Source of the DNA: an uncultured Acidobacteriaceae bacterium
GTDB lineage: Bacteria > Acidobacteriota > Terriglobia > Terriglobales > Acidobacteriaceae
NCBI GenBank assembly: GCA_963791735.1
Contig: CAWBTR010000009.1
Location: 51,765-115,764 of the forward strand
DNA: 64,000 nucleotides
Direction of reading: 5' to 3'
The notes beneath the pieces are model-generated. The model searched no databases. It worked only from the letters and a program-made list of their open reading frames with translations, and had not been told where the DNA came from. The stretch's first letter is position 1, and every line of letters begins with the position of its first letter. Below are positions 42,749-59,161 of this stretch, piece by piece. Position numbers and translations under genes: made by a program.

Positions 42749-44746
42749 TTACTGTGGCGACTGGTCGATGTGGAAGTCGACGACGACGGAGTGTTGAATA
42801 CCATTGCTCGTTGCAGTAATGGTGATCGGATAAGTGTGATCGAAGTACCCGCTTCCGCAGCCCGTCATGGTGCCAATGGCTCCAAGTGACAACAGCAGCA
42901 GCACCGAGTTTGTAATAATGCGTGCCAGTTTTTTACTCGTGCGACGGGAGTACCGAAGGCCCAGAAGAGGCAGCAGGAACAAGCCAAGTGCCACGTGCGA
43001 AAGTTTGCTCGACAGATCCTCATTCGAGGCAAGCTTGCGCGTCGCCACGGTGAGAACGATGTCCGCCGGACCACCAGTCTTCGATACCGTTGCCGGCGAG
43101 AAAGTGTAGGTGCTGAGCAGAGGACCGTTATCGTTTGTTGTGAACTGCACATCTCCCGGATAAGTGCCACCAATCGGAGCAATATGCAGAGTGAACTGCC
43201 GCGTGGTGCCGTACGTTCCCTCGACGGTGCCCGCGCTGGTGACCTGGAGGCTGAAGTCCAGGGGGGTGATGACGATGGTGTTCGCGCCGGTAGCTGCGGA
43301 AGCTGTGTTCGGGGCGAAGTCAGTATCTCCACTGTAGACCGCAACGATAACGTGTGTTCCGACCGAAAGCCCGGCGGAGGTAAAGGTCGCAACCCCGTTA
43401 GACAAAGTTGCCGATCCGATAATGTTTCCATTGTCGAGGAACTTGATGGTTCCAGTCGGGACGCCAGTGGTGCTTGAGGCCACGGTCGCTGTCATCGTGA
43501 CGTTTAGGCCGTATGCGATAGAAGACGCGCTGAGCGTAGTCGTGATGAGCGCGGGTGCCTGCGTAACCGTCAGCGTTCCGTTCTGCACCACCTGGATGTA
43601 GTCGCTGAGGTTGGCTCCGGAAGCGGTGGGGACAATTGGGTACTGACCCGGGTCAGAGGAGATGGTCGCAGTGTTGGCGAAGGTTTCGGTAAAGACGTCA
43701 CCATTCTCGGCGCCAGTGATGCTGCCTTGGAATACCGGGTTCGCTACACCGTAGAGGCGAGTGTAGCTATTAGCGGAGATCGTGAGAGTCGCCTGCGAGA
43801 CAGTGATTGGAACAACCTTGGTCGCAGAGGTGTAGTTCGCCGTATCGGTCGGGGTAAAGGTAACGGACAACTGCTTCGTACCGACCATGAGGACGGTTCC
43901 GGCCGCAGGGCTGTAGACGAAGGTGCCGTCCAATGGGGTGGTTCCATTCAACTGATAGGCAGCGGCGTCCAACTGAGTGGAGCTCAGCGGAGTTCCGTAG
44001 AGGATAGTCGCGGGATTCGGCCAGGTGAGGATCGGAGTGGTCTGGTTGACGGTCAACTGCACGGTCTTGGTGACGGAGGTGTAGTCGGTGGTGTCGGTCG
44101 GGGTAAAGGTGACCGAGAGCGTATCGACTCCTGCTGTTGGCACGCTGCCTGCGGCCGGAGTGTAAGCGAATGACCCAGCGACAGGAGCGGTAGCGTCGAG
44201 TTGTGCACTGGTGAGAGGTGTTCCGTACGAGACGCTCGTGGGAGTGGCCCATGTGATCGTGGGGGTGGCCTGCCCGACGGTCAACTGTACTGTCTTGGTG
44301 GCCGTCGTGTAGTTGACTGTGTCGGTCGGGGTGAAGGTGACGGTGAGGCTATCGGTACCAGCAGTGAGCACGCTGCCTGCGGCTGGGGTATACACGAACG
44401 ACCCAGCGACCGGCGTGGTCGCGTCGAGTTGTGCACCGGAGAGGACGGTTCCATAGGTGATGCCTGCAGGAGTGGCCCAGGTAATCGTGGGTGTAGCCTG
44501 ACTGACGATCAACTGCACGGTCGCGGTAGCTGTTGTGTAGTCGGTCGTATCAGTCGGCGTGAAGGTGACCGATAGCGTATCGGTACCGGCGGTCGGAACG
44601 CTGCCCGCCGCTGGAGTATAGGCGAACGAGCCTGGAACGGACGCGGTCGCATTGAGTTGCGTCGCGGAGAGCGCTGTGCCGTAGACGATGCTCGCCGGAT
44701 TGGACCAGGTGATCGTCGGCGTAGCCTCGGCGACGGTTAGTTGCAC
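42749..44746 (-). CDS. Giant adhesin-like repeat protein, C-terminal segment
   Basis: Four ~81-aa ITW..YGT..QL.AT...TFTPTDT..Y repeats, one MBG-type unit (SANSYTRLYGVANPVFQGSITGAENGDVF...), two Ig-like domains (TGTIKFLDNGNIIGSATLSNGVATF...), then two hydrophobic segments and a short tail. There is no independent start context: the upstream frame continues the same repeat. Confidence 0.8.
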   Translation of the reverse strand: MQLTVAEATPTITWSNPASIVYGTALSATQLNATASVPGSFAYTPAAGSVPTAGTDTLSVTFTPTDTTDYTTATATVQLIVSQATPTITWATPAGITYGTVLSGAQLDATTPVAGSFVYTPAAGSVLTAGTDSLTVTFTPTDTVNYTTATKTVQLTVGQATPTITWATPTSVSYGTPLTSAQLDATAPVAGSFAYTPAAGSVPTAGVDTLSVTFTPTDTTDYTSVTKTVQLTVNQTTPILTWPNPATILYGTPLSSTQLDAAAYQLNGTTPLDGTFVYSPAAGTVLMVGTKQLSVTFTPTDTANYTSATKVVPITVSQATLTISANSYTRLYGVANPVFQGSITGAENGDVFTETFANTATISSDPGQYPIVPTASGANLSDYIQVVQNGTLTVTQAPALITTTLSASSIAYGLNVTMTATVASSTTGVPTGTIKFLDNGNIIGSATLSNGVATFTSAGLSVGTHVIVAVYSGDTDFAPNTASAATGANTIVITPLDFSLQVTSAGTVEGTYGTTRQFTLHIAPIGGTYPGDVQFTTNDNGPLLSTYTFSPATVSKTGGPADIVLTVATRKLASNEDLSSKLSHVALGLFLLPLLGLRYSRRTSKKLARIITNSVLLLLSLGAIGTMTGCGSGYFDHTYPITITATSNGIQHSVVVDFHIDQSPQ

Positions 44747-47700
44747 CGTTTTGGTGACGGTGGAGTAGTTGGTCGTGTCGGTCGGCGTAAAGGTTACCGA
44801 GAGAGTATCGGTGCCAGCCGTCGGGACATTGCCTAAAGCAGGGGTGTAGACAAATGTTCCGGCAACGGATGCTGTCGCATCGAGCTGCGTCGTTGGAGAG
44901 CGCGGTTCCGTAGGTGATGCCGGCGGGAGCGGCCCAGGTGATTACTGGGGCAGCCTGGCTGACGACCAGCGAAACAGTCTTGGTGACTGTGGAGTAGTCG
45001 GTCGTATCAGTCGGGGTAAACGTGACTGAGAGGGTGTCGGTACCGGCGGTTGGAACACTGCCCAGGGCGGGAGTGTAGACGAATGTGCCTGCAACAGACG
45101 CAGTCGCGTCGAGCTGCGTCGCAGAGAGCGCCGTTCCGTAGGTGATACCTGCAGGAGGAGCCCAGGTGATCACCGGGGCCGCCTGGCTGACGACCAGTTG
45201 CACGGTCTTGCTGGCGCTGGTGTAGTCGGTCGTGTCGGTCGGGGTGAAAGTGACCGAAAGCACATCGGTACCGGCAGCTGGAACGCTACCGGCAGCGGGC
45301 GTGTAGGCAAATGTGCCCGCTACAGAAGAGGTGGCGTTGAGCTGCGTTGCGGAGAGTGCGGTTCCGTAGGTGATACCAGCCGGAGTGGCCCACGTGATGA
45401 CCGGAGTGGCCTGGCTGACGGTGATCTGCACGGTCTTGGAGATGCTCGTGTAGTCGGTGGTGTCGGTCGGGGTGAAGGTGACCGAGAGTGTGTCGGTGCC
45501 AGCCGCGGGGATACTGCCAGGGCAGGAGTATAGGTGAATGAGCCGGCGACCGAAGCTGTCGCATTCAACTGGGTTGCGGAGAGCGCAGTGCCGTAGACGA
45601 TGCCGGCCGGGTTGTTCCACGTAATCACCGGAGTGGCCTGGGTGACGGTGATCTGCACCGTCTTGGTGACGGTGGAGTAGTCAGTGGTATCGGTCGGCGT
45701 GAAGGTGACTGAAAGCGTGTCAGTTCCCGCGGTTGGGATGCTGCCAGCTGCAGGCGTGTAGACGAAGGAGCCTGCAACCGAAGCAGTGGCATTGAGCTGA
45801 GCGCCAGAGAGCGCAGTGCCGTAGACGATGCCTAGCCGGGTTATTCCACGTGATCACCGGAGCAGCCTGCGAAACGATGAGCTGGACGGTTGCGGTGGCC
45901 GTGGAGTAGTTGGTGGTGTCGGTCGGAGTAAAGGTGACCGAGAGCGTATCCGTGCCAGCTGTCGGAACGGTGCCAGCGGCAGGCGTATAGACGAGAGTGC
46001 CCGGTACAGAGGCAGACGCATTCAGCTGAGTAGCGGAGAGTGCCGTGCCGTAGACGATGCTCGCCGGGGTTGTTCCAGGTAATCACAGGTGCAGCTTGAG
46101 TGACGGTCAACGTGACGGTCTTGGTGACACTCGTGTAGTCGGTCGTGTCGGTCGGGGTGAACGTGACCGAGAGCGTATCCGTGCCGGCAACAGGGATCGT
46201 ACCGGCGGCAGGCGTATAGGCGAACGTGCCGGCAACCGAAGCCGTCGCGTTGAGCTGTGTGGCCGAGAGAGCAGTACCGTAGACGATGCTCGCCGGGTTA
46301 TTCCAGGTGATCACCGGTGCAGCTTGAGTGACGGTCAGCTGACGGTCTTGGTGGCGGTAGTGTAGTCGGTCGTATCGGTCGGGGTGAAGGTAACCGAGAG
46401 GGTGTCGGTGCCAGCGGCGGGGATACTACCAAGGGCAGGAGTATAGGCAAACGTACCGGCGACCGAGGCAGTCGCATTGAGCTGAGTCGCCGAGAGCGCC
46501 GTTCCGTAGGTGATGCTCGCCGGGTTATTCCAGGTGATTACCGGGGCGGCTTGGGTGACGGTGATCTGCACCGTCTTGGTCACAGTGGTGTAGTCAGTCG
46601 TATCGGTCGGAGTGAACGTGACCGAGAGTGTGTCAGTGCCAGCGGCTGGGATGCTGCCAGGGCAGGAGTGTAGACAAATGTACCGGCGACCGAGGCAGTT
46701 GCGTTGAGCTGAGTAGCGGAGAGCGCGGTGCCGTAGACGATGCCTGCCGGGTTATTCCAGGTGATCACCGGAGCAGCCTGCGTAACCGTAAGCTGGACGG
46801 TTACGGTGACTGTGGAGTAGTCGGTGGTGTCGGTCGGAGTGAAGGTCACCGAGAGGGTATCGGTGCCGGCAGCAGGGACAGTACCAGCGGCAGGCGTATA
46901 GACGAGAGTGCCGGCAACAGACGCAGACGCATTAAGCTGAGTGGCGGAGAGTGCGGTGCCATAGGTGATGGCAGCCGGAGGAGCCCAGGTAATGACAGGA
47001 GCAGCCTGAGTGACGGTCAACGTGACCGTCTTGGTGACACTGGTGTAGTCGGTGGTGTCGGTCGGGGTGAAGGTGACCGAAAGAGTGTCGGTGCCGGCGG
47101 CGGAGTCGTGCCCGCTGCCGGCGTATAGACGAACGTGCCGCGTACCGAAGCCGTCGCGTTCAGCTGAGTTGCTGAAAGCGCGGTCCCGTAGACGATATTC
47201 GCCGGGTTATTCCAGGTGATCACCGGAGCAGCTTGGGTGACGGTGAACTGTACCGTCTTGGTGACACTGGTGTAGTCCGTGGTGTCGGTCGGGGTGAAGG
47301 TCACCGAGAGCGTATCGGTGCCGGTCGCCGGAGTCGTGCCCGCTGCCGGCGTATACGCAAACGAGCCGCCCACCGAGGCCGTCGCGTTCAACTGCGTTGC
47401 CGAGAGCGTGGTCCCGTAGACGATATTCGCCGGGTTATTCCAGGTGATCACCGGAACGGCCTGGGTGACGGTGATCTGCACCGTCTTGGTGACACTGGTG
47501 TAGTCGGTGGTGTCGGTCGGGGTGAAGGTCACCGACAAGGTATCGGTGCCGGTCGCCGGAGTCGTGCCCGCTGCAGGCGTATAGGCGAACGTGCCGCCCA
47601 CCGAAGCCGTCGCGTTCAACTGCGTTGCCGACAGCGTGGTCCCGAAGGGGATGCTGGCCGGGTTGTTCCAGGTGATGACAGGAGCGGCCTGGGTGACGGT

Positions 47701-48370
47701 GAACTGACCGTCTTGGTGACACTCGTGTAGTCGGTGGTGTCGGTCGGGGTAAAGGTAACCGAGAGCGTATCGGTGCCGGTCGCCGGAGTCGTACCCGCAG
47801 CCGGGGAGTAGGCGAACGAGCCGGCAACCGAGGCCGTCGCGTTGAGCTGCGTTGCGGAGAGCGTAGTTCCGTAGGGGATGCTCGCCGGGTTGTTCCAGGT
47901 GATCACCGGAACGGCCTGCGTAACAACGATCTGTACCGTCTTGGTGACCCTGGTGTAGTCGGTGGTGTCGGTCGGGGTGAACGTGACCGAGAGAGTGTCG
48001 GTGCCGGTCGGCAGGAGACGTGCCCGCTGCAGGCGTGTAGACCAGAGTGCCGGCTACAGACGCAGTAGCATTCAACTGAGTGGCAGAGAGCGCGGTTCCG
48101 TAGGTGATGCTCGCCGGGTTATTCCAGGTGATGACAGGTGCGCCTGTGTTACAGACAGCTGCACGGTCTGGGTGACTGTCGTGTAGTCGGTGGTGTCGGT
48201 CGGGGTAAACGTAACCGAGAGCGTATCGGTACCGGCAGAGGGCTCCGTACCCGCCGCCGGCGAGTAAACGAACGTGCCGGCGACCGAAGCCGTTGCGTTC
48301 AACTGCGTCGCCGAGAGCAGGGTGCCATAGGGGACCCCGGCAGGGTTCGTCCAGGTGATGGTGGGAGTTG
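43795..48370 (-). repeat. About 19 tandem ~243-bp (81-aa) ITW..YGT..QLNAT..TFTPTDTTDY coding repeats
   Basis: Unit consensus QA.PVITWNNPA.I.YGTALSATQLNATASVAGTF.YTPAAGT.PA.GTDTLSVTFTPTDTTDYTSVTKTVQ.TVT, read across frames. (48370-43795)/243 is about 19. Resembles the Pfam MBG 'YGX type' as I remember it. Confidence 0.8.
44550..48075 (-). pseudogene. Frame-interrupted part of the giant repeat gene (about 14 units of the 243-bp repeat, about 10 frame changes)
   Basis: ORFs 47017..48075, 47616..47906, 46580..47020, 46335..46583, 45841..46314, 45320..45658 and 44550..45620 each contain stretches of the same repeat consensus. These alternate with its out-of-frame readings (e.g. DRHRHSLGHVHPDRHHRLH is the shifted reading of TDTLSVTFTPTDTTDY). 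Confidence 0.75.
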
Positions 48371-51300
48371 CCTTGGCCACGCTGAAGGTTGCGGTCTTGG
48401 TGGCAGCGGCGTAGTTGCTGTCAGCGGCTTCGGACGCCTGCAGCACCACCGTGCCGGTGCCGGTCAGGGTGACGGTTGCGCCCGAGATGGCCGCCGGACC
48501 CGAGACCACCGAGTAGGTGAAGGCCCCGGTCGAGTTCGAGGTCGCGGCCACGGTGAACGGAGCCGCACCATAGGTCTGGTTGGCCACGTTGAAGACGATC
48601 GTCGGAGTGCCGGCGCCGATGGTCAGGGTGCCGTTGACGAAGGTGAAGCTGTAGTTGGCTGCAGCCAGGGTGCCTGCCGCCGCGGTGATCGGATAAGTCC
48701 CGGCGTTGACCGGAGTCGCAGGCGAGGTGGTCAGGCTGGCGGTGCCGGTCACCACACTCGCGGTATCGCCGTTGACGAAGCCGGTGATGGTCGCGGTGTA
48801 GGGAGCGACGGTGCCGCCGAAGGCGATGGTCTGGTTCGCCGCCGTGACCGTCAGCACCGCCTTGGCCACGCTGAAGGTGGCGGTCTTGGTGGCAGCGGCG
48901 TAGTTGCTGTCAGCGGCTTCGGACGCCTGCAGCACCACCGTGCCGGTGCCGGTCAGGGTGACGGTTGCGCCCGAGATGGCCGCCGGACCCGAGACCACCG
49001 AGTAGGTGAAGGCCCCGGTCGAGTTCGAGGTCGCGGCCACGGTGAACGGAGCCGCACCATAGGTCTGGTTGGCCACGTTGAAGACGATCGTCGGAGTGCC
49101 GGCGCCGATGGTCAGGGTGCCGTTGACGAAGGTGAAGGTGTAGTTGGCTGCAGCCAGGGTGCCTGCCGCCGCGGTGATCGGATAGGTCCCGGCGTTGACC
49201 GGAGTCGCAGGCGAGGTGGTCAGGCTGGCGGTGCCGGTCACCACGCTCGCGGTATCGCCGTTGACGAAGCCGGTGATGGTCGCGGTGTAGGGAGCGACGG
49301 TGCCGCCGAAGGCGATGGTCTGGTTCGCTGCCGTGACCGTGAGCACTGCCTTGGCTACGGTGAAGGTGGCGGTCTTGGTGGCAGCGGCGTAGTTGCTGTC
49401 AGCGGCTTCGGACGCCTGCAGCACCACCGTGCCGGTGCCGGTCAGGGTGACGGTTGCGCCCGAGATGGCCGCCGGACCCGAGACCACCGAGTAGGTGAAG
49501 GCGCCGGTCGAGTTCGAGGTCGCGGCCACGGTGAACGGAGCCGCGCCGTAGGTCTGGTTGGCCACGTTGAAGACGATCGTCGGAGTGCCGGCGCCGATGG
49601 TCAGGGTGCCGTTGACGAAGGTGAAGGTGTAGTTGGCTGCAGCCAGGGTGCCTGCCGCCGCGGTGATCGGATAGGTCCCGGCGTTGACCGGAGTCGCAGG
49701 CGAGGTGGTCAGGCTGGCGGTGCCGGTCACCACGCTCGCGGTGTCGCCGTTGACGAAGCCGGTGATGGTCGCGGTGTAGGGAGCGACGGTGCCGCCGAAG
49801 GCGATGGTCTGGTTCGCCGCCGTGACCGTCAGCACCGCCTTGGCCACGCTGAAGGTGGCGGTCTTGGTGGCAGCGGCGTAGTTGCTGTCAGCGGCTTCGG
49901 ACGCCTGCAGCACCACCGTGCCGGTGCCGGTCAGGGTGACGGTTGCGCCCGAGATGGCCGCCGGACCCGAGACCACCGAGTAGGTGAAGGCCCCGGTCGA
50001 GTTCGAGGTCGCGGCCACGGTGAACGGAGCCGCACCATAGGTCTGGTTGGCCACGTTGAAGACGATCGTCGGAGTGCCGGCGCCGATGGTCAGGGTGCCG
50101 TTGACGAAGGTGAAGGTGTAGTTGGCTGCAGCCAGGGTGCCTGCCGCCGCGGTGATCGGATAAGTCCCGGCGTTGACCGGAGTCGCAGGCGAGGTGGTCA
50201 GGCTGGCGGTGCCGGTCACCACGCTCGCGGTGTCGCCGTTGACGAAGCCGGTGATGGTCGCGGTGTAGGGAGCGACGGTGCCGCCGAAGGCGATGGTCTG
50301 GTTCGCTGCCGTGACCGTCAGCACCGCCTTGGCCACGCTGAAGGTGGCGGTCTTGGTGGCAGCGGCGTAGTTGCTGTCAGCGGCTTCGGACGCCTGCAGC
50401 ACCACCGTGCCGGTGCCGGTCAGGGTGACGGTTGCGCCCGAGATGGCCGCCGGACCCGAGACCACCGAGTAGGTGAAGGCCCCGGTCGAGTTCGAGGTCG
50501 CGGCCACGGTGAACGGAGCCGCGCCATAGGTCTGGTTGGCCACGTTGAAGACGATCGTCGGAGTGCCGGCGCCGATGGTCAGGGTGCCGTTGACGAAGGT
50601 GAAGGTGTAGTTGGCTGCAGCCAGGGTGCCTGCCGCCGCGGTGATCGGATAGGTCCCGGCGTTGACCGGAGTCGCAGGCGAGGTGGTCAGGCTGGCGGTG
50701 CCGGTCACCACGCTCGCGGTGTCGCCGTTGACGAAGCCGGTGATGGTCGCGGTGTAGGGAGCGACGGTGCCGCCGAAGGCGATGGTCTGGTTCGCCGCCG
50801 TGACCGTCAGCACCGCCTTGGCCACGCTGAAGGTGGCGGTCTTGGTGGCAGCGGCGTAGTTGCTGTCAGCGGCTTCGGACGCCTGCAGCACCACCGTGCC
50901 GGTGCCGGTCAGGGTGACGGTTGCGCCCGAGATGGCCGCCGGACCCGAGACCACCGAGTAGGTGAAGGCCCCGGTCGAGTTCGAGGTCGCGGCCACGGTG
51001 AACGGAGCCGCGCCATAGGTCTGGTTGGCCACGTTGAAGACGATCGTCGGAGTGCCGGCGCCGATGGTCAGGGTGCCGTTGACGAAGGTGAAGGTGTAGT
51101 TGGCTGCAGCCAGGGTGCCTGCCGCCGCGGTGATCGGATAGGTCCCGGCGTTGACCGGAGTCGCAGGCGAGGTGGTCAGGCTGGCGGTGCCGGTCACCAC
51201 ACTCGCGGTGTCGCCGTTGACGAAGCCGGTGATGGTCGCGGTGTAGGGAGCGACGGTGCCGCCGTAGGCGATGGTCTGGTTCGCCGCCGTAACCGTCAGC

Positions 51301-54300
51301 ACTGCCTTGGCTACGCTGAAGGTGGCGGTCTTGGTGGCAGCGGCGTAGTTGCTGTCAGCGGCTTCGGACGCCTGCAGCACCACCGTGCCGGTGCCGGTCA
51401 GGGTGACGGTTGCGCCCGAGATGGCCGCCGGACCCGAGACCACCGAGTAGGTGAAGGCCCCGGTCGAGTTCGAGGTCGCGGCCACGGTGAACGGAGCCGC
51501 GCCATAGGTCTGGTTGGCCACGTTGAAGACGATCGTCGGAGTGCCGGCGCCGATGGTCAGGGTGCCGTTGACGAAGGTGAAGGTGTAGTTGGCTGCAGCC
51601 AGGGTGCCTGCCGCCGCGGTGATCGGATAGGTCCCGGCGTTGACCGGAGTCGCAGGCGAGGTGGTCAGGCTGGCGGTGCCGGTCACCACACTCGCGGTAT
51701 CGCCGTTGACGAAGCCGGTGATGGTCGCGGTGTAGGGAGCGACGGTGCCGCCGAAGGCGATGGTCTGGTTCGCTGCCGTAACCGTCAGCACCGCCTTGGC
51801 TACCACGATAGACACCGTCTTCGTTACCGGCGCATAGTCGGTCGTATCGGTGGGGGTAAAGGTGACCGATAAAGTCTGAGTGCCCTGAGACAGAACCGCA
51901 CCGAGAGCTGGAGTGTAGACGAGACTGCCGGAGATCGAACCCACGACGGTTGCATTGAGCTGGGTACCAGACAGTGCAGTGCCATAGGTGATTGCGGCCG
52001 GGTTGCTCCAGTTAATGACTGGTGTCACCTGGGTGACGGTTAAGGTGCCGGGATTGGTCACCACGTTGTAATTGGCCAGGTTGGTCCCTGCGGCTACCGG
52101 GTTGATGGGGTAGCTCCCTACCGGTGATGAGGGGGTGGCAGTGGTGGAGAAGCTCTCAGTGAATGTGTCACCGTTCACGGCACCAGTAATGGTTCCGGTG
52201 AAGGTCGGGTTGGCGGTGTTATACGGGCGGCTGAAACTGTTGGCCGATACGGTCAAGGTAGCCTGGGTGATGACCACCGAACCCGCTACAAAAGTGAAGG
52301 TGTAATTGCCGGAGGCCAGCGTGCCTGCAGCGGCAGTAATCGGATAAGTGCCAACATTGACCGGGGTAGCAGGAGTGGTGGTGAGCGAAGGAGCGCCTGT
52401 CGTGGCAGTGGACTGCGTATCGCCATTGACGAAGCCGGCAATGGTGTAGCTGTAGGGTGCGAGCGCCGTGCCGTACACCACCGTCTGGCTGTTGGCGGTA
52501 ACGGTAAGAGAAGCCTTAGTGATGACCACTGAGCCGTCAACAAAGGTAAAGCTGTAGTTCGCGGCCGTCAGTGATCCCGCAGCTGCAGTGACTGGGTAGG
52601 TGCCGGCGTTGACCGGAGTCGCCGGAGACGTCGTCAGCGACGGAGTGCCTGTGGTCGACGTTGCCTGCGTATCTCCGTTGACAAAGCCGGTGATCGTGTA
52701 AGTGTAAGGCGCAAGCGCCGTGCCGTACATCACGGTTTGGCTGCTCGCAGTCACGGTCAAGCTGGCCTTTGTAATTGTGGCCGTGCCGTTGACGAAGGTG
52801 AAACTGTAGTTGCTTGAGGCCAGCGAACCTATTGCCGCGGTGATCGGGTAGACGCCAACATTGACCGGGGTCGCCGGCGATGTCGTCAGCGATGGAGTGC
52901 CGGTTGTTGCAGAGGTCTGCGTGTCACCATGCACGAAACCGGTGATGGTGTAGGCATAGGGAGCCAGCGCAGTGCCATACACCACACTCTGGCTGGTAGC
53001 GGTCACCGTCAGAGTAGCCTGAGTAATGGTGGCCGTGCCGTTGACGAAAGTGAAGGTGTAATTGCTCGAGGCCAGCGAACCTATTGCCGCGGTGATCGGA
53101 TAGGTGCCGACATTGACCGGCGTAGCCGGGGATGTAGTCAGCGATGGAGTGCCGGTCGTCGCAGAGGCCTGCGTATCACCGTGGACAAAGCCGGTCATCG
53201 TGTAGGTATAGGGATCAAGTGAGGTGCCGTATACCACGCTCTGGTTATTTGCCGTCACCGTCAGGGTGGCCTGCGTGATCGTCGCCGTGCCGTTGACAAA
53301 ATTGAAGCTGTAATTGCCGGAGGCCAGCGAGCCGACTGCAGTGGTGATCGTATAGACGCCGGCGTTGACCGGAGTTGCCGGAGACGTGGTCAGCGTTGGA
53401 GCACCCGTCGTTGCAGTGGCCTGGGTATCACCGTGGACAAAACCGGTCATCGTGTAGGTGTAGGGAGCCAGCGCTGTGCCGTACACCACCGTCTGACTGT
53501 TCGATGTCACGGTTAAGACAGCTTTAGTAATTGTGGCTGTGCCGTTAACCACAGTGAAGTTGTAATTGCTGGCAACCAGCGAACCGACTGCAGTGGTGAT
53601 CGTATAGACACCTACGTTGACCGGAGTTGCCGGAGACGTGGTCAGCGTTGGAGCACCCGTCGTTGCCGACGCCTGAGTATCTCCGTTAACAAAGCCGGTG
53701 ATGGTGTAAGTGTAGGGAGCAAGCGCCGTGCCATATACCACGGTCTGGCTGGTCGCTGTAACGGTCAAGGTCGCTTTTGTAATCGTGACCGTACCGTTGA
53801 CAAACGTAAACGTGTAATTACTGGCGGCGAGCGAGCCCACCGCTGCCGTGACAGGATAGCTGCCCACGTTAACCGGGGTTGCCGGGGATGTGGTCAAGGA
53901 TGGAGCGCCGGTTGTTGCGCTGGCCTGGGTATCGCCGTTGACGAAACCGGTAATGGTGTAAGTGTAGGGAGCCAACGCGGTGCCGTACACAACGGTCTGG
54001 CTGTTCGCCGTCACCTTCAACGAAGCCGGGTTAATAACGACCGATCCGTTGACGAAGGAGAAAATGTAGTTGCCACCGGCGGCGAGAGAACTCTGGGCTA
54101 CCACGATGGGATAGGTTCCTACGTTGACCGGTGTTGCTGGCGTGGTAGTCAACGATGGCGTACCAGTAACTACCGAAGCCTGGGTGTCACCGTTCACGAA
54201 TCCGGTGATGGAGTAGGTATACGCAGCCAGCGCGGTCCCATAGGTTACTGTCTGGCTCTTGGCCGTCACCGTCAGCGTGGCCGGGTTCACCACGATCGTG

Positions 54301-56393
54301 ACAGTCTTGACTATTGGAGAGGCGTAGTCTGTGGTGTCGGTGGGAGTAAAGGTAACTTGTAGTGTATGAGAGCCCGCGGAAAGAACCGTGCCGCTCGCAG
54401 GGGAGTACACGTAGGTACCCGCAACGCCGCCCGCCGTTGCGTTGAGCTGAGTGCCGGACAGGGCTGTGCCGTAGGTGATCGCTGCTGGATTATTCCAGGT
54501 GATAGCCGGAGTAGCCTGGGTGATCGTCAAAGTGCCGGTGTTGACGACTACGTTGTAATCGGCGAGGTGAGTGCCGATAGCGGACGGCGTGATGGTATAC
54601 GTACCGACGGGTGAGGTGGTGATTGCCGGAGTGGAGAAGCTTTCAGTGAAAGTGTCACCGCTCACCGCGCCAACGATAGTTCCCGTGAAGGTCGGGTTGG
54701 CGGTGTTATAGACGCGGGTGGCGTTGTTGGCTGTGAGGGTCAGCGTCGCTTTATTGATGGTGATCTGACCGTTGACGTAGACGAAGCTGTAGTTGGTTGA
54801 AGCCAGACTGCCAGCCGCTGCCGTAAGCACATAGGTGCCAACCGCAGACGGAGTCGTTGGAGTCGTTGTCAATGATGGCGTGCCGGTAATGACGCTCGCC
54901 TGGGTGTCTCCATTGACGAAGCCGGTGATGGTGTAGGTATAGGGAGCAAGCGCCGTGCCGTAGACCACGCTCTGGCTGCTCCCTGTCACCGTCAGCGTCG
55001 CCTGGTTCACCACGATAGAAACGGTCTGGCTCGCTGCGGCGTAGTGTGTGGTGTCGGTGGGGGTGAAGGCGACCGAAAGAGTATGAGTTCCTGGGGTAAG
55101 AATTGTTCCGCTGGCAGGGGTATAAACGTAAGTGCCAGGAACCGGGCTTGTCGCAGACGACGATGTACCGAGGGACATCCCCAGAATTACGACATTGAGA
55201 TTATTGGGAAGCGTAATGCTGCTAACCGTTCTAGTGTTATCGAGAGCAATCTGGTAACCGTACAGGTTATAAGTGCCAGTTACCTGAGATCCACTGGATG
55301 TATCATCCTTTGTCGTCGTTACAACGATCGACTCCCCAGCAAAAGCACTTGATGCTGTCCAGTTGCTGAGACTGAGTTGCGTCGTAGTAGGAGCGCCAGT
55401 GGTGTAGTTGACGGTGAATGTCTGGTTCGCCTGTGCACCGTTAACTCCCGCTCCGATGAGAGACAGAGTCGTAAAGTTCCCCGGAGGAAGCGAGATCGTC
55501 GTGCTCGTCACCGCATCAGGAACACTTGGTGGCCCAAGTGCGAAGGTGATCCCGTTCCAGACAACGGACGTTCCCAGTTGATTGGCAGAGTACGAATTGC
55601 CGTTGCCGTCGAATCCTCCAACCTGATAGCTCACGCCGTCAGTAAAGAAGGCGCTAACGCGATAGTAGGCGGAAATCGGCACAGGGATCATGCCCGTTGC
55701 AGTTAGGGCGGTGGCATCAAGCTGCGTGGAGCTTAACGGTGTTCCGTAGTTGATGGGTGCGGGTGTGGGCCAGCTAAGGTACGCTGTCGCCGGATTGACG
55801 ACGAGTTGCACGGTCGCCGATGCGCTCGAGTAGTCGACGGTGTCAGTCGGAGTAAAGGTAGCCGAAAGAGTATCGGTACCAACAGCAGGGACTGTACCAG
55901 CAGCCGGCGTGTAAACGAGCGTCCCTGATACCGGAGGAGTAGTAAGCCCCATGGCCAGCATCACAACATTGCGTGTGTTCGGAAGCGTAATACTCTGTAC
56001 GATCCTCGTACTATCGAGTGCAATTTGATATCCGTAGACGCAGGTGGAGTGCGTGTCCTGTGCCCCGCCGGATTCATCGCGTGAGATGTCGCACTTCACG
56101 TTCGACTCGCCCGCGTAGTTCATCGGGTAGACCCAGTCGCTGAGACTCTGAGTCACCGTCGTCGGGGTTCCGGTGGTGTACGTCACAACGAAGGTATTCG
56201 ATGCGGTCGCGTTGTTGACCAACGCGCCAAGCATATTGAGGGTGGCGAAGTGGCCTTGTGGCAGGTTGATGGTTATATTGCTGACAGCATCGGCCGCGTT
56301 GAACGGCCCCATGGGGTAGGTCACGCCGTTCCAGCTAATCGATGTGCCCAGTTGGTTACCCGAATAGCATGTTCCCCCCGCCGTCGAATCCAC
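48072..56393 (-). CDS. Giant adhesin-like repeat protein, central 2,773-codon segment
   Basis: A single open frame. It contains two ~175-aa unassigned modules, several ITW..YGT repeats, about 11 MBG-type repeats (VVYGTALAPYTYTITGFVNGDTQAS...NYTFTFVNGT.TIT) and seven identical 163-aa MBG+Ig units. Confidence 0.85.
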   Translation of the reverse strand: MDSTAGGTCYSGNQLGTSISWNGVTYPMGPFNAADAVSNITINLPQGHFATLNMLGALVNNATASNTFVVTYTTGTPTTVTQSLSDWVYPMNYAGESNVKCDISRDESGGAQDTHSTCVYGYQIALDSTRIVQSITLPNTRNVVMLAMGLTTPPVSGTLVYTPAAGTVPAVGTDTLSATFTPTDTVDYSSASATVQLVVNPATAYLSWPTPAPINYGTPLSSTQLDATALTATGMIPVPISAYYRVSAFFTDGVSYQVGGFDGNGNSYSANQLGTSVVWNGITFALGPPSVPDAVTSTTISLPPGNFTTLSLIGAGVNGAQANQTFTVNYTTGAPTTTQLSLSNWTASSAFAGESIVVTTTKDDTSSGSQVTGTYNLYGYQIALDNTRTVSSITLPNNLNVVILGMSLGTSSSATSPVPGTYVYTPASGTILTPGTHTLSVAFTPTDTTHYAAASQTVSIVVNQATLTVTGSSQSVVYGTALAPYTYTITGFVNGDTQASVITGTPSLTTTPTTPSAVGTYVLTAAAGSLASTNYSFVYVNGQITINKATLTLTANNATRVYNTANPTFTGTIVGAVSGDTFTESFSTPAITTSPVGTYTITPSAIGTHLADYNVVVNTGTLTITQATPAITWNNPAAITYGTALSGTQLNATAGGVAGTYVYSPASGTVLSAGSHTLQVTFTPTDTTDYASPIVKTVTIVVNPATLTVTAKSQTVTYGTALAAYTYSITGFVNGDTQASVVTGTPSLTTTPATPVNVGTYPIVVAQSSLAAGGNYIFSFVNGSVVINPASLKVTANSQTVVYGTALAPYTYTITGFVNGDTQASATTGAPSLTTSPATPVNVGSYPVTAAVGSLAASNYTFTFVNGTVTITKATLTVTATSQTVVYGTALAPYTYTITGFVNGDTQASATTGAPTLTTSPATPVNVGVYTITTAVGSLVASNYNFTVVNGTATITKAVLTVTSNSQTVVYGTALAPYTYTMTGFVHGDTQATATTGAPTLTTSPATPVNAGVYTITTAVGSLASGNYSFNFVNGTATITQATLTVTANNQSVVYGTSLDPYTYTMTGFVHGDTQASATTGTPSLTTSPATPVNVGTYPITAAIGSLASSNYTFTFVNGTATITQATLTVTATSQSVVYGTALAPYAYTITGFVHGDTQTSATTGTPSLTTSPATPVNVGVYPITAAIGSLASSNYSFTFVNGTATITKASLTVTASSQTVMYGTALAPYTYTITGFVNGDTQATSTTGTPSLTTSPATPVNAGTYPVTAAAGSLTAANYSFTFVDGSVVITKASLTVTANSQTVVYGTALAPYSYTIAGFVNGDTQSTATTGAPSLTTTPATPVNVGTYPITAAAGTLASGNYTFTFVAGSVVITQATLTVSANSFSRPYNTANPTFTGTITGAVNGDTFTESFSTTATPSSPVGSYPINPVAAGTNLANYNVVTNPGTLTVTQVTPVINWSNPAAITYGTALSGTQLNATVVGSISGSLVYTPALGAVLSQGTQTLSVTFTPTDTTDYAPVTKTVSIVVAKAVLTVTAANQTIAFGGTVAPYTATITGFVNGDTASVVTGTASLTTSPATPVNAGTYPITAAAGTLAAANYTFTFVNGTLTIGAGTPTIVFNVANQTYGAAPFTVAATSNSTGAFTYSVVSGPAAISGATVTLTGTGTVVLQASEAADSNYAAATKTATFSVAKAVLTVTAANQTIAYGGTVAPYTATITGFVNGDTASVVTGTASLTTSPATPVNAGTYPITAAAGTLAAANYTFTFVNGTLTIGAGTPTIVFNVANQTYGAAPFTVAATSNSTGAFTYSVVSGPAAISGATVTLTGTGTVVLQASEAADSNYAAATKTATFSVAKAVLTVTAANQTIAFGGTVAPYTATITGFVNGDTASVVTGTASLTTSPATPVNAGTYPITAAAGTLAAANYTFTFVNGTLTIGAGTPTIVFNVANQTYGAAPFTVAATSNSTGAFTYSVVSGPAAISGATVTLTGTGTVVLQASEAADSNYAAATKTATFSVAKAVLTVTAANQTIAFGGTVAPYTATITGFVNGDTASVVTGTASLTTSPATPVNAGTYPITAAAGTLAAANYTFTFVNGTLTIGAGTPTIVFNVANQTYGAAPFTVAATSNSTGAFTYSVVSGPAAISGATVTLTGTGTVVLQASEAADSNYAAATKTATFSVAKAVLTVTAANQTIAFGGTVAPYTATITGFVNGDTASVVTGTASLTTSPATPVNAGTYPITAAAGTLAAANYTFTFVNGTLTIGAGTPTIVFNVANQTYGAAPFTVAATSNSTGAFTYSVVSGPAAISGATVTLTGTGTVVLQASEAADSNYAAATKTATFTVAKAVLTVTAANQTIAFGGTVAPYTATITGFVNGDTASVVTGTASLTTSPATPVNAGTYPITAAAGTLAAANYTFTFVNGTLTIGAGTPTIVFNVANQTYGAAPFTVAATSNSTGAFTYSVVSGPAAISGATVTLTGTGTVVLQASEAADSNYAAATKTATFSVAKAVLTVTAANQTIAFGGTVAPYTATITGFVNGDTASVVTGTASLTTSPATPVNAGTYPITAAAGTLAAANYSFTFVNGTLTIGAGTPTIVFNVANQTYGAAPFTVAATSNSTGAFTYSVVSGPAAISGATVTLTGTGTVVLQASEAADSNYAAATKTATFSVAKATPTITWTNPAGVPYGTLLSATQLNATASVAGTFVYSPAAGTEPSAGTDTLSVTFTPTDTTDYTTVTQTVQLSVTQAHLSSPGITRRASPTEPRSLPLS
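48371..51793 (-). repeat. Seven near-identical 489-bp tandem coding repeats
   Basis: The string ccttggc(c/t)ac recurs at 48371, 48860, 49349, 49838, 50327, 50816, 51305 and 51794, exactly 489 nt apart. Each unit encodes 163 aa. Only three amino-acid differences were seen among the seven copies. Confidence 0.95.
52265..54290 (-). repeat. Eight contiguous diverged 252-bp (84-aa) MBG-type coding repeats
   Basis: The repeated block is ATLTVTA.SQ.VVYGTALAPYTYTITGFV(N/H)GDTQ...TTG.P.LTTSPATPVN.G.YP.TAA.GSLA..NY.FTFVNG..TIT(K/Q). Boundaries are approximate. Confidence 0.8.
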
Positions 56394-56413
56394 CGTTCAG
56401 AACCGGAGACCCG

Positions 56414-59161
56414 TCAGTGATGATGCCGTCCACGTTGTAGTAGGTGGACAGAGGAACCAACGTGGTGCTGGTAACGGTTGCGTCCAGTTGTACATTGCTG
56501 AGCGGAGTGCCAAAGGCGATCGATGCCGGAGTAGGCCAAGTGATGATCGGCGTCAGCCTGATTGACGACCAGGGTCACGCTCGCCGTGGCAATGGTGTAG
56601 TCGGTCGAGTCGGTTGGAGTGAAGGTTGCGGTGATGGTGTAGGTGCCGGTCGCAAGCAACGTCGATGCGGACGGGTTGTATGCAAAAGTTCCTGCTACGG
56701 TTGCCGTCGCGTTCAACTGTGTGCTCGACAACAAGGTCCCATAAGTAATGGGACTCGGATTGGCCCAGGTGATAACGGGCGTTGCCTTGCCAACAGTAAT
56801 CCCAAATGCGGGTGAGGCCGGGCTGGGTGAGAAGTTGGTATCTCCGCCGTAGCTGGCGGTAATGCTGTGATTGCCTGTCGCGAGACTCGTGGTGTTGAAT
56901 GTCGCTATTCCGCCCGAGACAGGGGCTGTCCCAATCGATGTGCCAAAGTCAAAAAATGTGACGGTGCCCGTTGGCGTCAGGGCACCTACCTGCAGAGGAG
57001 AAGTCTGCAGCGTTGCAGTCAGAACCACTTGTTGCCCAAAGGCGGGGGTAGTGGTGTTCGCGCTCAGGAGCGTAGTCGTTGATACCATCGTCGATTGCAG
57101 CGCCACCGTATTGGAGGTGCTACCGCTAAAGTGCGCGTCTGCTGCGTAGATCGCGTCGATATTATGAAGATTGGGGGCCGTGGCGAGGCCATTGCCCGGA
57201 ATGTCAACGCCTGTAATTAATACGCTCGCCGAATCCGTCACCTGGTTCAGCAATATGCCAACGTTATTCGTGTTGCTGTTTGCTACCGCCAGGTCGGCGC
57301 TGCCGTCCCCGTTAAAGTCCGCCGCGGTTATCGCAACAGGAGTTGTTGTTCCGGTTCCGGTAGTGAACGGGGAACTGGTAGCTGCTGTGAACACCGTGCC
57401 GCTACCGTTACCCAACATGACGGTAGTCGTGTTGTCTGACTGGTTTGTGACAGCAAAGTCCACTTTTCCGTCTGCATTGAAGTCTCCTGAAACAATTGAC
57501 ACAGGCTTCGACCCAGTGGCGGGAGCGCCTGTCAGCAACGTGAAGGTGCCGTTGCCGTTTCCTTTGAAGATATCTACCCTGTTTTTACCGTTCTCCGCGA
57601 CCGCAAGATCAAGGATGCCGTCTCCGTTGAAGTCCGCAACTGCGATAGCAGCGGGACTTGTTCCAGCCCCCGTAGCGAAGGGAGAACCGGTAGCAGCTGT
57701 GAACACTGTGCCGGTGCCGTTGCCCAGCATGACGCTAATCGTGTTGTCATTCTGGTTGGAGACAGCGAAGTCCAGGTTGCTGCCTCCATTGAAGTTTCCT
57801 GTCACAATAGAAGTTGGACCATTGCCGACGGCAATTCCAGTCGGCGTAACATTTGAGAAACCGCCATTCCCATCTCCCTGCAGGATCTCCACCAGGCCTG
57901 CGCCGCCATTAGTATGAGTACCCAACACAGCGAGGTCGGGGATGCCATCCCCGTTAAAGTCCCCTATGGCAATTCCCGTGGAAGTCTTGCTGAGCAATGC
58001 AACAGAATAGGTCGTTTGGGTGTTGAAGGTGCCGTTTCCGTTTCCAAGCAAGATGGAAACCGTCTTGTCGCTGCTGTTTACCACAGCCAGATCAAGGTTA
58101 CCGTTGCCCTTAAAATCTCCTGCCACGATAGCAACCGGATTGTTGCCCGTTGGATACGTCGTCGCTGAGGGTGTAAATCCACCCGAACCATTCCCAATCA
58201 GAATGCTTACAGTCTGGTCGGTGTTGTTCAGTACAGCAAGATCAATAATGCCGTCGCCGTTAAAATCTCCAGCAACAATATCCTGTGGATTATTGCCTAC
58301 CGCAATCGGCGAACCGCCGCCCGCTACCGTCTGTTGTCCAAAAGCTCCAGCGCCCAGTGTTCCTGCCAATCCCACCTGTACGTTGGCGTTCGAGATGTCC
58401 TGGAGAGACACACTTCCAGTGGGCGAGAGATTGAGGCTGCCGATTCCCACGATGGTCGCGGTCAGTTGCCAGCTGCCCGCTACGCCCCCTGTTTGAGCAA
58501 GGCTGCCCGTCGTTGGATATAGGCCTGTAGTGGTTACCCCTTGTGCCGCCGAGAAACTGGTTAGAAAATTATTTGGCGGGTTGAAGGTTGCCACGATGGA
58601 GTGCGTGCCGATTCCACCAAGTTGCCGCATTAGAACTGCGTTGCCCGCTGTGCCGTGCGCCGACTGAACCTGGACTGTGCCGAGCACCGATGTGACGCTG
58701 CCGAAAGTATCTCGGAATGTGACAGTGCCGGCTGTCAGCGCCGATGTCCCTTTTACCGTCGCCGTCATAACGAATACGGATCCGTTGGCCATGCTCGGGG
58801 GATTCAACGGATTCACCGTAAGCGTAGTAGTCGTGGCCGTCTGCGCTCCCGCCACGGCATAGGACATCCCAATAAACAGCGTTACGCACAGAGCGGTGAC
58901 AGGACTTCTCCAAACGGAAGTTCTTCCACAACTCTTCGCACCATTAGAAACTTGCAATCTCTTATCGGCATCGCCGGAAACTTGTGGCAATCCAATTGCT
59001 CCAGGAGGTAATACCGTTTGGAGGCGGGACTGCGACAGCACATATTTCGCGGCGACCAGAGAGAACCAACGTGAGCCCCACGTGGATTTAGCGGATGAGA
59101 CTGACCGGCAGGAGCGAAGTGGGGACGCGGCACTCCGCGAAGACTTCATCATTACAGGCAT
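56414..59161 (-). CDS. Giant adhesin-like repeat protein, N-terminal segment (signal-like helix, Ig-like domains, 7-blade FG-GAP propeller)
   Basis: The hydrophobic PVTALCVTLFIGMSYAVAGAQ is at aa 87-107 of the listed ORF, so the true start may be downstream of 59161 (e.g. TTG 58957). Seven GDFNGDGxxDLAV-type blades lie at 57242-58324. Ig-like units flank them (TGTVTFRDTFGSV..., TGTVTFFDFGTSIGTAPVSGGIATF...). Confidence 0.8.
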   Translation of the reverse strand: MPVMMKSSRSAASPLRSCRSVSSAKSTWGSRWFSLVAAKYVLSQSRLQTVLPPGAIGLPQVSGDADKRLQVSNGAKSCGRTSVWRSPVTALCVTLFIGMSYAVAGAQTATTTTLTVNPLNPPSMANGSVFVMTATVKGTSALTAGTVTFRDTFGSVTSVLGTVQVQSAHGTAGNAVLMRQLGGIGTHSIVATFNPPNNFLTSFSAAQGVTTTGLYPTTGSLAQTGGVAGSWQLTATIVGIGSLNLSPTGSVSLQDISNANVQVGLAGTLGAGAFGQQTVAGGGSPIAVGNNPQDIVAGDFNGDGIIDLAVLNNTDQTVSILIGNGSGGFTPSATTYPTGNNPVAIVAGDFKGNGNLDLAVVNSSDKTVSILLGNGNGTFNTQTTYSVALLSKTSTGIAIGDFNGDGIPDLAVLGTHTNGGAGLVEILQGDGNGGFSNVTPTGIAVGNGPTSIVTGNFNGGSNLDFAVSNQNDNTISVMLGNGTGTVFTAATGSPFATGAGTSPAAIAVADFNGDGILDLAVAENGKNRVDIFKGNGNGTFTLLTGAPATGSKPVSIVSGDFNADGKVDFAVTNQSDNTTTVMLGNGSGTVFTAATSSPFTTGTGTTTPVAITAADFNGDGSADLAVANSNTNNVGILLNQVTDSASVLITGVDIPGNGLATAPNLHNIDAIYAADAHFSGSTSNTVALQSTMVSTTTLLSANTTTPAFGQQVVLTATLQTSPLQVGALTPTGTVTFFDFGTSIGTAPVSGGIATFNTTSLATGNHSITASYGGDTNFSPSPASPAFGITVGKATPVITWANPSPITYGTLLSSTQLNATATVAGTFAYNPSASTLLATGTYTITATFTPTDSTDYTIATASVTLVVNQADADHHLAYSGIDRLWHSAQQCTTGRNRYQHHVGSSVHLLQRGRHHH

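Follow-up and report, generated by a model that had tools for sequence, protein, structure and literature searches.

Fibrillar adhesins typically consist of a conserved head, a variable stalk and a conserved anchor. In the LapA, MpIBP, SiiE and BapA type of Gram-negative bacteria, a protein of multi-thousand-residue size has a long tandem Ig-like stalk, binding modules clustered at one end and a strain-variable repeat number, while in intimin and invasin Ig-like arrays end in a binding module and are combined with an outer-membrane beta-barrel. These traits recur, in part as predictions, in the locus described here. For Acidobacteria, our literature search on high-molecular-weight excreted proteins found one general sentence in a review (PMC4885859), which suggests, without experimental support, that high-molecular-weight exported proteins aid adhesion, biofilm and soil aggregation.

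The window, i.e. the whole stretch of DNA analyzed, comprises 64,000 nt from an uncultured Acidobacteriaceae bacterium (GenBank assembly GCA_963791735.1, contig CAWBTR010000009.1). On its minus strand, the region 59161-42749 is covered by open segments that pass from one frame to the next: according to stop-to-stop maps, frame 1 is open at 59161-56417 and frame 2 at 56399-48075; next come about seven short pieces, before frame 1 is open again at 44944-42752. A previous interpretation of this DNA, made from its letters alone (the sequence-only reading), had taken these segments for collinear pieces of one repeat protein, and the frame maps agree with the length it had given (16,413 nt, exactly 5,471 codons including the stop) and with the common frame of the two outermost pieces. 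Twelve one-base indels were placed by aligning the 228-nt repeat units and by alignment to a close relative (contig_71609). Their correction by six removals and six insertions, net zero, yielded an ORF of 5,470 codons without internal stop, and the collinearity is thereby borne out. Judged from sequence, the pieces make up a single gene, which encodes a giant repeat protein of a soil Acidobacteriaceae bacterium close to Edaphobacter/Tunturiibacter, with the following parts and downstream neighbor:

42749-59161, minus strand: entire coding unit; with the 12 one-base indels corrected, 5,470 codons and a stop (frame maps, single-ORF orthologues)
58844-59161, minus strand: N-terminal leader, residues 1-106 (sequence reading, N-terminal alignment of orthologues)
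58310-58843, minus strand: two N-terminal Ig-like domains, residues 107-284 (Pfam, sequence reading)
57242-58309, minus strand: seven-blade FG-GAP/VCBS-type beta-propeller, residues 285-640, seen at the sequence level (PF13517, PF01839, motifs)
56786-57241, minus strand: linker Ig and Big_3_5, residues 641-792 (PF16640, best stretch 699-784)
55788-56785, minus strand: ITW units 1 and 2, unit 2 with nested module 1 at 55932-56472; two frameshifts (56554, 56369)
54999-55787, minus strand: ITW unit 3 with nested module 2 at 55158-55706 (AF2 model, Foldseek, profile search)
51795-54998, minus strand: first stalk segment, two MBG_2 units, ITW unit 4, nine MBG_2 units, ITW unit 5 (PF18676, TRF 252-nt period, motif counts)
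48372-51794, minus strand: seven 489-nt repeats, 98% identical, each an MBG_2 unit and a 79-aa Ig-like unit
43796-48371, minus strand: 20 ITW-type Ig units of 76 aa in an array with a 228-nt period
43268-43795, minus strand: last MBG_2 unit and C-terminal Big_3_5 (Pfam)
42752-43267, minus strand: terminal Ig-like domain, apparently broken by a lipo-invert-like tail (NF058595, AF2, Foldseek)
42112-42666, minus strand: gene of a 184-aa outer-membrane beta-barrel protein (OMP_b-brl, PF13505, E 1.4e-9), 82 nt downstream of the giant gene

The leader comprises an extension of about 85 aa (MPVMMK...AIGLPQVSG), followed by a basic and hydrophobic stretch that resembles a signal peptide and ends in AVAGA-QT; candidates for the start codon are the ATG at 59161 and an internal TTG near 58957. 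The predicted composition of Ig-like, FG-GAP and MBG domains was matched by Pfam HMMs as foreseen: FG-GAP_3 (PF13517) scored 172 bits and FG-GAP (PF01839) 75 bits, in line with the seven blades anticipated, six of which show a DFNGDG-type (DxNxDG) motif by regular expression, the seventh (GDFKGNG near residue 348) being recognized by eye. For Big_3_5 (PF16640, cut-off 35.5), the N-terminal piece scored 78 bits and its C-terminal counterpart 71-75 bits; in the 915-aa piece there were two stretches, the best at residues 699-784. MBG_2 (PF18676) scored 784 bits (cut-off 25), in 18 stretches of the 2,773-aa piece and one of the C-terminal piece. Motif counting likewise gave 19 MBG_2 units, in tandem and of about 72-84 aa each, so that the MBG units expected were present, at 19 rather than about 20. 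TRF detected a 228-nt unit in 19 copies, a 489-nt unit in 7 copies (98% identity) and a 252-nt unit in 6.9 copies. The ITW-type (ASH/HYDIN-like) Ig units number 25, close to the two dozen proposed, and are 76 aa (228 nt) long instead of about 81 aa; two of them bear an insertion of about 185 aa. Seven additional 79-aa Ig-like units, one per 489-nt repeat, matched no family in Pfam or NCBIfam. What did not hold was the block-wise order of the sequence-only reading, since ITW and MBG units are interleaved: from N to C there are three ITW, two MBG, one ITW, nine MBG and one ITW unit, then seven 163-aa MBG+Ig repeats, 20 ITW units, one MBG, Big_3_5 and the tail. The stalk amounts to about 55 beta-sandwich units.

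The existence of two nested modules was confirmed, and they need no longer be called unassigned. Although they matched no family in Pfam or NCBIfam, Foldseek aligned the AF2 model of the module (pLDDT 77; confidence is low in the loops of residues 38-56 and 85-91) with PDB 7WUW/8GS1 (E 3e-9, TM 0.79 by target and 0.60 by query, 192 aligned columns), and the search of PDB sequences with profile A3 (hmmsearch) gave E 5e-4 over query positions 43-206. On the basis of this model and profile, the nested modules are beta-sandwiches distantly homologous to AziU2/AziU3. Their domain family, which has a distant relationship to AziU2/U3 and is represented by no model, comprises about 2,800 sequence clusters. 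In non-catalytic Ig or CHB_HEX_C_1 repeat proteins, module homologues are present in 2-6 copies, a pattern that fits binding modules.

The C-terminus, described before as a double hydrophobic segment, does consist of two helices in the AF2 model, followed by a hairpin; it now also appears NF058595-like. A TM helix (42956-42994) leads via the basic loop RYSRRTSKK to a second, lipoprotein-signal-like helix (42857-42934), which includes the lipobox TMTGC, and a beta-hairpin of 35 aa (42752-42856) comes last, the sequence being VALGLFLLPLLGL-RYSRRTSKK-LARIITNSVLLLLSLGAIGTMTG-C-GSGY...(35 aa). Against NCBIfam NF058595 ('invert_tail', lipo-invert), the tail scored 28.9-29.5 bits (E about 1e-6), which is below the cut-off of 37, in an alignment spanning profile positions 4-109 of 113. 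All 17 homologous tails matched the same family, the best relatives with E 2.5e-12, the Cys is invariant in the 17 homologues, and an LGLxLLP motif is conserved. The layout of helix, basic loop, signal with lipobox Cys and short end, as read from the family name, is present. No paper describing the 'lipo-invert' family was found, and when the last 89 and 171 residues were compared with NCBIfam at E up to 10, NF058595 was the only match, with no PEP-CTERM, T9SS or other sorting domain. The tail appears to be inserted into the last Ig domain: Foldseek Ig matches of the terminal domain span the insertion, which is indirect evidence that the tail hairpin docks on this domain.

The small OMP gene, in front of which the giant gene had been said to lie, directly follows the tail in 13 of 13 related loci. 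Likewise, the rhamnose/EPS neighborhood was recovered, with rmlB, rmlA and rmlD downstream; the rml linkage was seen in the window and in the closest relative, and loci L002 and L003 have other upstream neighbors. Neither at the gene start nor at the junction with the OMP gene did promoter and terminator scans give a match, which is uninformative. Elsewhere in the window, at 26.6-28.35 kb, a gene of a Wzx-type flippase has an in-frame stop and frame changes.

Homologues are annotated as 'Ig-like domain repeat protein', 'VCBS repeat-containing protein' or 'hypothetical protein'. Since the longest protein among those listed had only about 1,600 aa, intact giant orthologues were sought at the DNA level. 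The best match in genome contigs was 79% identical. Uninterrupted orthologous ORFs extend over at least 4,893 codons in the Tunturiibacter isolate T. psychrotolerans X4BP1, at least 4,822 in the isolate T. empetritectus M8UP27 and at least 4,941, 5,082 and 4,952 codons in Edaphobacter MAGs, and a MAG locus (L015) holds a complete copy of 4,830 codons with a tail of the same type, followed by the OMP gene. The orthologous group occurs in cultured Tunturiibacter, Granulicella and strain KBS 89. Its head and tail are conserved, and the stalk composition varies even among near-identical strains.

The sequence-only reading had named no cause for the frame changes, which here correspond to 12 one-base indels private to the assembly. 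Extra bases are found at 56554 (G), 56369 (T), 48013, 46069, 45834 and 44894, and bases are missing after 48142, 47707, 47102, 46661, 46342 and 45521. Because related high-quality genomes have the gene as a single ORF, these frameshifts are, on indirect evidence, most likely assembly errors, namely errors that arose in the consensus of a long-read metagenome assembly, within a strain-variable repeat array. The orthologous ORF was interrupted in 10 of 16 loci from Nanopore-only MFD MAGs, as compared with 1 of 11 in other assemblies (Fisher p = 0.0076), and orthologous protein fragments from such MFD-type assemblies finish in out-of-frame sequence; the MFD pipeline consists of Flye and one Medaka round (PMC12313526). 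Eleven of the 12 indels lie in ITW-type units (10 of them within the 20-unit array at 43796-48371) and the twelfth in the nested module of ITW unit 2; the MBG and 489-nt arrays, 8.2 kb in all, have none. Under a uniform distribution, the chance of confinement to ITW units plus the nested module is about 3e-5, or 3e-6 for canonical ITW sequence alone.

Alternatively, the giant adhesin gene might be truly inactivated in this strain, the 12 frameshifts being real mutations, which we consider unlikely. In the 4.8-kb upstream flank no indel was seen between the window and contig_71609, and the flanking rml and HAD genes look intact, which means that the indels are strongly concentrated in the giant gene, a pattern also expected from real gene-specific decay. 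Furthermore, the broken flippase gene, with a nonsense codon atypical of indel error, indicates that real pseudogenes may exist in the source genome, and the isolate chromosome of T. gelidiferens M8UP28 and one HiFi-style MAG have 1-2 frame changes in their own copies. Long homopolymers are absent at most indel sites; about four of these touch short homopolymers, and no homopolymer or methylation-motif-like context common to the 12 was found. However, several observations speak against decay: (i) all 12 indels are absent from contig_71609 (93-99% identical), which is in frame at each site and has its own, different private frameshifts; (ii) dN/dS relative to this contig is 0.33 (43 synonymous and 40 non-synonymous changes); (iii) confinement to ITW units and the nested module would be unexpected under neutral decay; and (iv) the interruptions follow assembly type. 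The absence of nonsense codons from the 5,470 codons of the corrected ORF points in the same direction but is weak evidence, because 2.2% of random substitutions in the giant CDS create stops, so that none would be expected with P = 0.07 after 120 neutral changes.

Taken together, it seems fairly probable that the locus is a single gene for a giant envelope-anchored fibre, probably a surface adhesin or matrix-binding protein, whose 12 frameshifts are most likely consensus errors. Such a protein would be exported via Sec; its propeller and the two inserted modules would form the distal ligand-binding end, and the repeats would act as a spacer of about 0.2 um (estimated at about 4 nm for each beta-sandwich unit). 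Retention at the envelope would be the task of the C-terminus: a stop-transfer helix, a positive cytoplasmic loop and a lipoprotein-type signal peptide may return the last beta-hairpin to the outside at a lipidatable Cys, where it could complete the final Ig fold, and the co-conserved 8-strand-type OMP is a candidate partner in the outer membrane. More speculatively, fibre, split-Ig tail and adjacent OMP might constitute an undescribed way in which diderm Acidobacteria anchor, and perhaps display, a Sec-exported adhesin: the final two strands of the terminal Ig domain would pass back through the inner membrane after a lipoprotein signal, be lipidated at the Cys and clamp the fibre to the envelope, with the OMP as outer-membrane partner and with the AziU-like modules as ligand-binding heads of a large unmodelled family; we put this forward as a tentative and rather doubtful proposal.

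It is less plausible still that an intact gene serves a purpose other than adhesion, for example as a periplasmic or inner-membrane-tethered spacer, an S-layer-like coat or an exopolysaccharide scaffold, with AziU-like modules that might even be catalytic. The tail does predict tethering to the inner membrane, known outer-membrane export signals were not found, the gene adjoins dTDP-rhamnose and EPS genes, and the sole characterized relatives of the nested modules are enzymes (AziU3/U2 aziridine synthase, PMC12559475). Nevertheless, the multi-copy occurrence of module homologues in non-catalytic repeat proteins and the limits of the rml linkage, in view of the differing upstream neighbors of L002 and L003, argue against such roles, and a conserved head, variable stalk and conserved anchor are typical of fibrillar adhesins.

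Two further explanations are highly improbable. Surface adhesin genes are classic targets of phase variation, one indel directly follows a six-G run and two are GGG-to-GG contractions, but programmed frameshifting or phase variation regulating fibre expression is hardly compatible with the absence of simple-sequence tracts and slippery heptamers at the indel sites, with indel positions conserved in no relative and with twelve events in series, which would leave practically zero full-length product. Similarly, several adjacent repeat-protein genes, each translated independently, would account for the nine or more ORFs listed by the ORF finder, some with GTG or TTG starts, and for the many small genes called in related assemblies, but every ORF boundary lies inside a repeat unit whose amino acid sequence goes on in another frame, a single base per boundary restores the frame, intergenic gaps are absent, the HMM matches do not assign the pieces to unrelated families, and orthologues with equal domain grammar, from isolates and other assemblies, occupy one ORF each, 4,800 codons long or more.

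These results imply that giant repeat genes in Nanopore-only soil MAGs are split into many small 'hypothetical proteins', which inflates gene counts; the fragmentation amounts to at least nine ORFs here and is worse in related assemblies. It hides what is possibly the largest envelope protein of the cell, which frame-aware reconstruction recovers. With its cultured carriers, the orthologous group offers a tractable test case for exported giant proteins, and three of its parts are of particular interest, i.e. a tail family known as a database model only, an unmodelled family related to AziU2/U3 and a strictly co-conserved small OMP.

Compared with known systems, type I secreted RTX adhesins of the LapA type have no Sec signal and bear a retention module at the N-terminus and RTX repeats plus a T1SS signal at the C-terminus, whereas the giant protein has a signal-peptide-like leader at the N-terminus and a membrane and lipobox tail at the C-terminus, and no RTX/HemolysinCabind was among its Pfam and NCBIfam matches. 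In intimin and invasin, the 12-strand barrel is N-terminal and part of the same polypeptide, whereas here it is encoded on its own, as a small OMP_b-brl-type protein of 184 aa; no barrel translocator domain was found by Pfam in any piece, which sets the protein apart from autotransporters. The nested module has a fold in common with AziU2/AziU3 (Azi28) of Streptomyces sahachiroi, with weak full-length profile similarity, but AziU3/U2, an aziridine synthase (PMC12559475), is a small soluble heterodimeric enzyme, whereas the module, at 17% identity, sits within an Ig unit of a giant repeat protein. With NF058595, the tail has the helix, the basic loop, the Cys lipoprotein-type signal and the short beta tail in common, but at 28.9 bits it falls short of the curated cut-off of 37. 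With the MBG_2/Big_3_5/FG-GAP repeat proteins, the giant protein has strong HMM matches to all three families in common, to which its orthologous group adds two AziU-like modules, a lipo-invert-like tail and a dedicated OMP neighbor.

Open minus-strand segments were chained from the head (N-terminus, 59161) of the giant gene to its end at 42749, using an ORF listing and stop-to-stop frame maps.

Open segments of the giant gene (window coordinates)
59161-56417, minus strand, frame 1 piece, 915 aa
56399-48075, minus strand, frame 2 piece, 2,773 aa
between 48423 and 44553, minus strand, about seven short pieces
44944-42752, minus strand, frame 1 again

Past the end of each piece, the repeat was picked up in another frame and the former one gave typical out-of-frame junk (e.g. 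"HHLDEPCRGPLWH"), and both ends of the 16,413-nt span lay in one frame. Since the repeats ran on across the frame changes, the sequence-only reading that these ORFs are collinear pieces of one repeat protein was borne out, and the FG-GAP, Ig-like, and MBG families that it had foreseen were all matched in Pfam: FG-GAP_3 (172 bits), FG-GAP (75 bits), Big_3_5 (78 and 71 bits), and MBG_2 (784 bits in 18 stretches, plus one in the C-terminal piece).

Tandem arrays in the giant gene (Tandem Repeats Finder)
43992-48330, 228-nt unit, about 19 copies
48370-51800, 489-nt unit, 7 copies, 98% identity
52288-54014, 252-nt unit, 6.9 copies

The 98% identity of the seven 489-nt repeats points to either a very recent expansion or copy-number uncertainty in the assembly. 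A plus-strand ORF at 48138-51872 (1,244 aa) is no gene but the antisense shadow that the array casts.

By aligning the 228-nt units (76-aa Ig-like ITW repeats) with each other, reading 56800-56300 in three frames, and aligning a close relative, we placed twelve one-base indels: six extra bases (56554, 56369, 48013, 46069, 45834, and 44894) and six missing ones (after 48142, 47707, 47102, 46661, 46342, and 45521). All twelve edits, net zero, yielded one 5,470-codon ORF free of internal stops. The 20-unit ITW array accounted for ten of the indels; of the other two, one fell where ITW units 1 and 2 meet and one in nested module 1, within ITW unit 2, while the 8.2 kb of MBG arrays and near-identical 489-nt repeats held none of the 12. 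Were indels uniform over the gene, such confinement would have a probability of ~3e-5, or 3e-6 for canonical ITW sequence alone. The frame-corrected translation, to which residue numbers refer, had the following architecture.

Architecture of the giant protein
residues 1-106, leader
residues 107-284, Ig-like domains
residues 285-640, seven FG-GAP blades
residues 641-792, Ig and Big_3_5
residues 793-1387, three 76-aa ITW-type units, the second and third each with a ~185-aa inserted module
residues 1388-3596, two MBG, ITW, nine MBG, ITW, followed by seven repeats of 163 aa, each an MBG unit and a 79-aa Ig-like unit
residues 3597-5122, twenty ITW units
residues 5123-5298, MBG, then Big_3_5
residues 5299-5470, terminal Ig-like domain with tail

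The leader includes a basic and hydrophobic segment ending in AVAGA|QT. The ~85 aa preceding this signal-peptide core (58905-59161, MPVxMK...AIGxPQxSG) are kept in Edaphobacter-like orthologues and not in those of Tunturiibacter, and may represent a longer signal region or else a conserved 5' leader. The start chosen by gene callers, M99, would remove the signal peptide. ITW units gave weak matches to ASH/HYDIN/CFAP65-type Ig models, and family searches of all pieces found no catalytic family, in agreement with the earlier remark that no catalytic motif is visible.

GTDB species genomes were scanned with a degenerate pattern derived from a head-region alignment, which returned 73 loci, the close ones being all from Acidobacteriaceae (Edaphobacter, Tunturiibacter, Granulicella, and strain KBS 89). 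Uninterrupted orthologues spanned at least 4,893 codons in T. psychrotolerans X4BP1, at least 4,822 in T. empetritectus M8UP27, and at least 4,941, 5,082, and 4,952 in three Edaphobacter MAGs, these lengths being lower bounds as the ORFs run off the 22-kb locus. A complete copy of 4,830 codons (L015) ended with the same C-terminal tail as in the window, and the OMP gene came after it. When two loci that overlap in one Edaphobacter MAG (L014 and L055) were merged, they gave a ~24-kb gene of 6,018 + 2,258 codons with a single frame change between them and a near-identical C-terminus. These orthologues had in common a propeller and two nested modules, after which came ITW and MBG arrays whose proportions varied. 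Judged by sequence, the pieces are one gene, and the single ~16.4-kb coding unit proposed earlier is upheld by the stop-free corrected ORF together with the single-ORF orthologues. Frame changes were also seen elsewhere: that of the merged gene (~25180-25645) lies inside a run of perfectly identical ITW and MBG repeats despite a hifiasm-style MAG, and the copy of T. gelidiferens M8UP28 (L026) has two.

The closest relative was the ENA metagenome contig ERZ25039470:contig_71609 (loci L001 and L077), 98.9% identical to the window over the upstream flank and head and 93% over the gene's final 6.2 kb. It was in frame at all 12 window indel sites and carried many private indels, some of them in the adjacent HAD and rmlD genes, whose window copies are intact. 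One-base insertions in L077 (14639, 14897, and 15266) lengthen rmlD and cut the HAD hydrolase gene short, both full length in the window counterpart (38411-39036), so that frameshift errors of contig_71609 reach beyond the giant gene. Over the first 4.28 kb, the two copies were separated by 43 synonymous changes and 40 non-synonymous ones (dN/dS 0.33), the amino-acid replacements being conservative, and every orthologue protein fragment from like assemblies ended out of frame. Among 16 loci from MFD MAGs, 10 had an interrupted ORF, versus 1 among 11 from other assemblies (Fisher p = 0.0076); MFD MAGs are Nanopore-only, Flye-assembled, and polished with one Medaka round (PMC12313526). The window's frameshifts are thus probably assembly artefacts. 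Their clustering might plausibly come from reads of a co-occurring ITW-rich strain mis-aligned on the ITW array during polishing, because near-identical strains differ in stalk composition. A true, recent inactivation of the giant gene appears unlikely; it would agree with the mostly intact state of the window's other genes, which makes the indels gene-specific, and with a flippase gene also being broken in the window, while the lack of nonsense codons in the giant gene speaks weakly against it, since just 2.2% of substitutions in its CDS create stops. This Wzx/Polysacc_synt-type flippase gene (26600-28350, minus strand), the only other clearly broken one seen in the window, has frame changes near 28000 and 27160 and, unlike the giant gene, a nonsense codon, near 27417 ('IVGHF*FSAVGFY'). 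At 15428-17162 (plus strand), in the lower-GC (0.48-0.55) polysaccharide-gene region (16-32 kb), two ORFs (285 and 300 aa) abut each other; the first gave a weak pectate-lyase/RHGA-like match, and they may be a split beta-helix gene. The orthologue fragment P0005 (8.4-kb contig) ends in '...SRSEERRVGKECLE', foreign to the repeat sequence; as this peptide presumably resembles a recurrent contig-end artefact, the end of its contig may be chimeric or artefactual.

The AF2 model of ITW unit 3 with its nested module (pLDDT 77) had AziU3/AziU2, an aziridine synthase (PMC12559475), as its only convincing PDB match (E 3e-9, TM 0.79 on target), and the module sequence profile matched AziU2/Azi28 over the full module length (E 5e-4). 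The family, which has no Pfam model, comprised 2,776 cluster representatives (E up to 1e-3), often with 2-6 copies per protein, beside CHB_HEX_C_1/Fn3_assoc arrays and without catalytic domains, a pattern that fits a binding module. In the stalk, contig_71609 has 4.3 kb of ITW units (L001 13991-14135 / L077 960-5259) in place of window 54874-48318 (6.5 kb of MBG and 489-nt arrays), between 99% identical flanks, which would reflect either cassette replacement between near-identical strains or repeats assembled differently.

The tail scored 28.9 bits, below the cut-off of 37, against NCBIfam NF058595 ("lipo-invert putative C-terminal anchoring domain"), which was matched by all 17 homologous tails (best E 2.5e-12). 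In it, a helix (VALGLFLLPLLGL) and a basic loop (RYSRRTSKK) precede a lipoprotein-type signal (IITNSVLLLLSLGAIGTMTG|C), whose Cys is invariant among the 17 tails, and 35 further residues follow. AF2 modeled the C-terminus (pLDDT 79) as a beta-sandwich with two helices and, at the very end, a confident hairpin; Foldseek Ig-domain alignments cross the entire 165-175 columns, which suggests that this hairpin completes the Ig fold around the membrane insertion. A 184-aa OMP_b-brl gene (window 42112-42666, minus strand; OMP identity 60-92%) followed ~85-140 nt after the tail, on its strand, in all 13 of the related loci that reach it (L077, L036, L031-L034, L040, L019, L051, L054, L055, L061, and L015), among them one on an isolate chromosome, and the pair looks like a conserved two-gene unit.

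We propose that the giant protein would be exported via Sec, with the propeller and two AziU-like modules as its distal binding end and ~55 beta-sandwich units as a spacer of roughly 0.2 um (an estimate from general knowledge). The C-terminal anchor would be formed by a stop-transfer helix, a basic loop in the cytoplasm, and a lipoprotein signal, which would bring the last hairpin back outside at a lipidatable Cys, the OMP being the putative outer-membrane partner of the fibre. At the sequence level, relatives were shown to conserve head and tail and to vary the stalk. Orthologues are present in public isolate genomes, and the tail, the nested-module family, and the OMP coupling deserve experiments. 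Pfam/NCBIfam searches placed the protein outside the RTX/T1SS, autotransporter, inverse-autotransporter, PEP-CTERM, and T9SS sorting classes. Giant exported proteins have already been remarked as a feature of Acidobacteria (PMC4885859). By its domain families, the protein clearly belongs to the MBG_2, Big_3_5, and FG-GAP repeat-protein kind, and by analogy it would work in the manner of giant fibrillar adhesins from Gram-negative bacteria.
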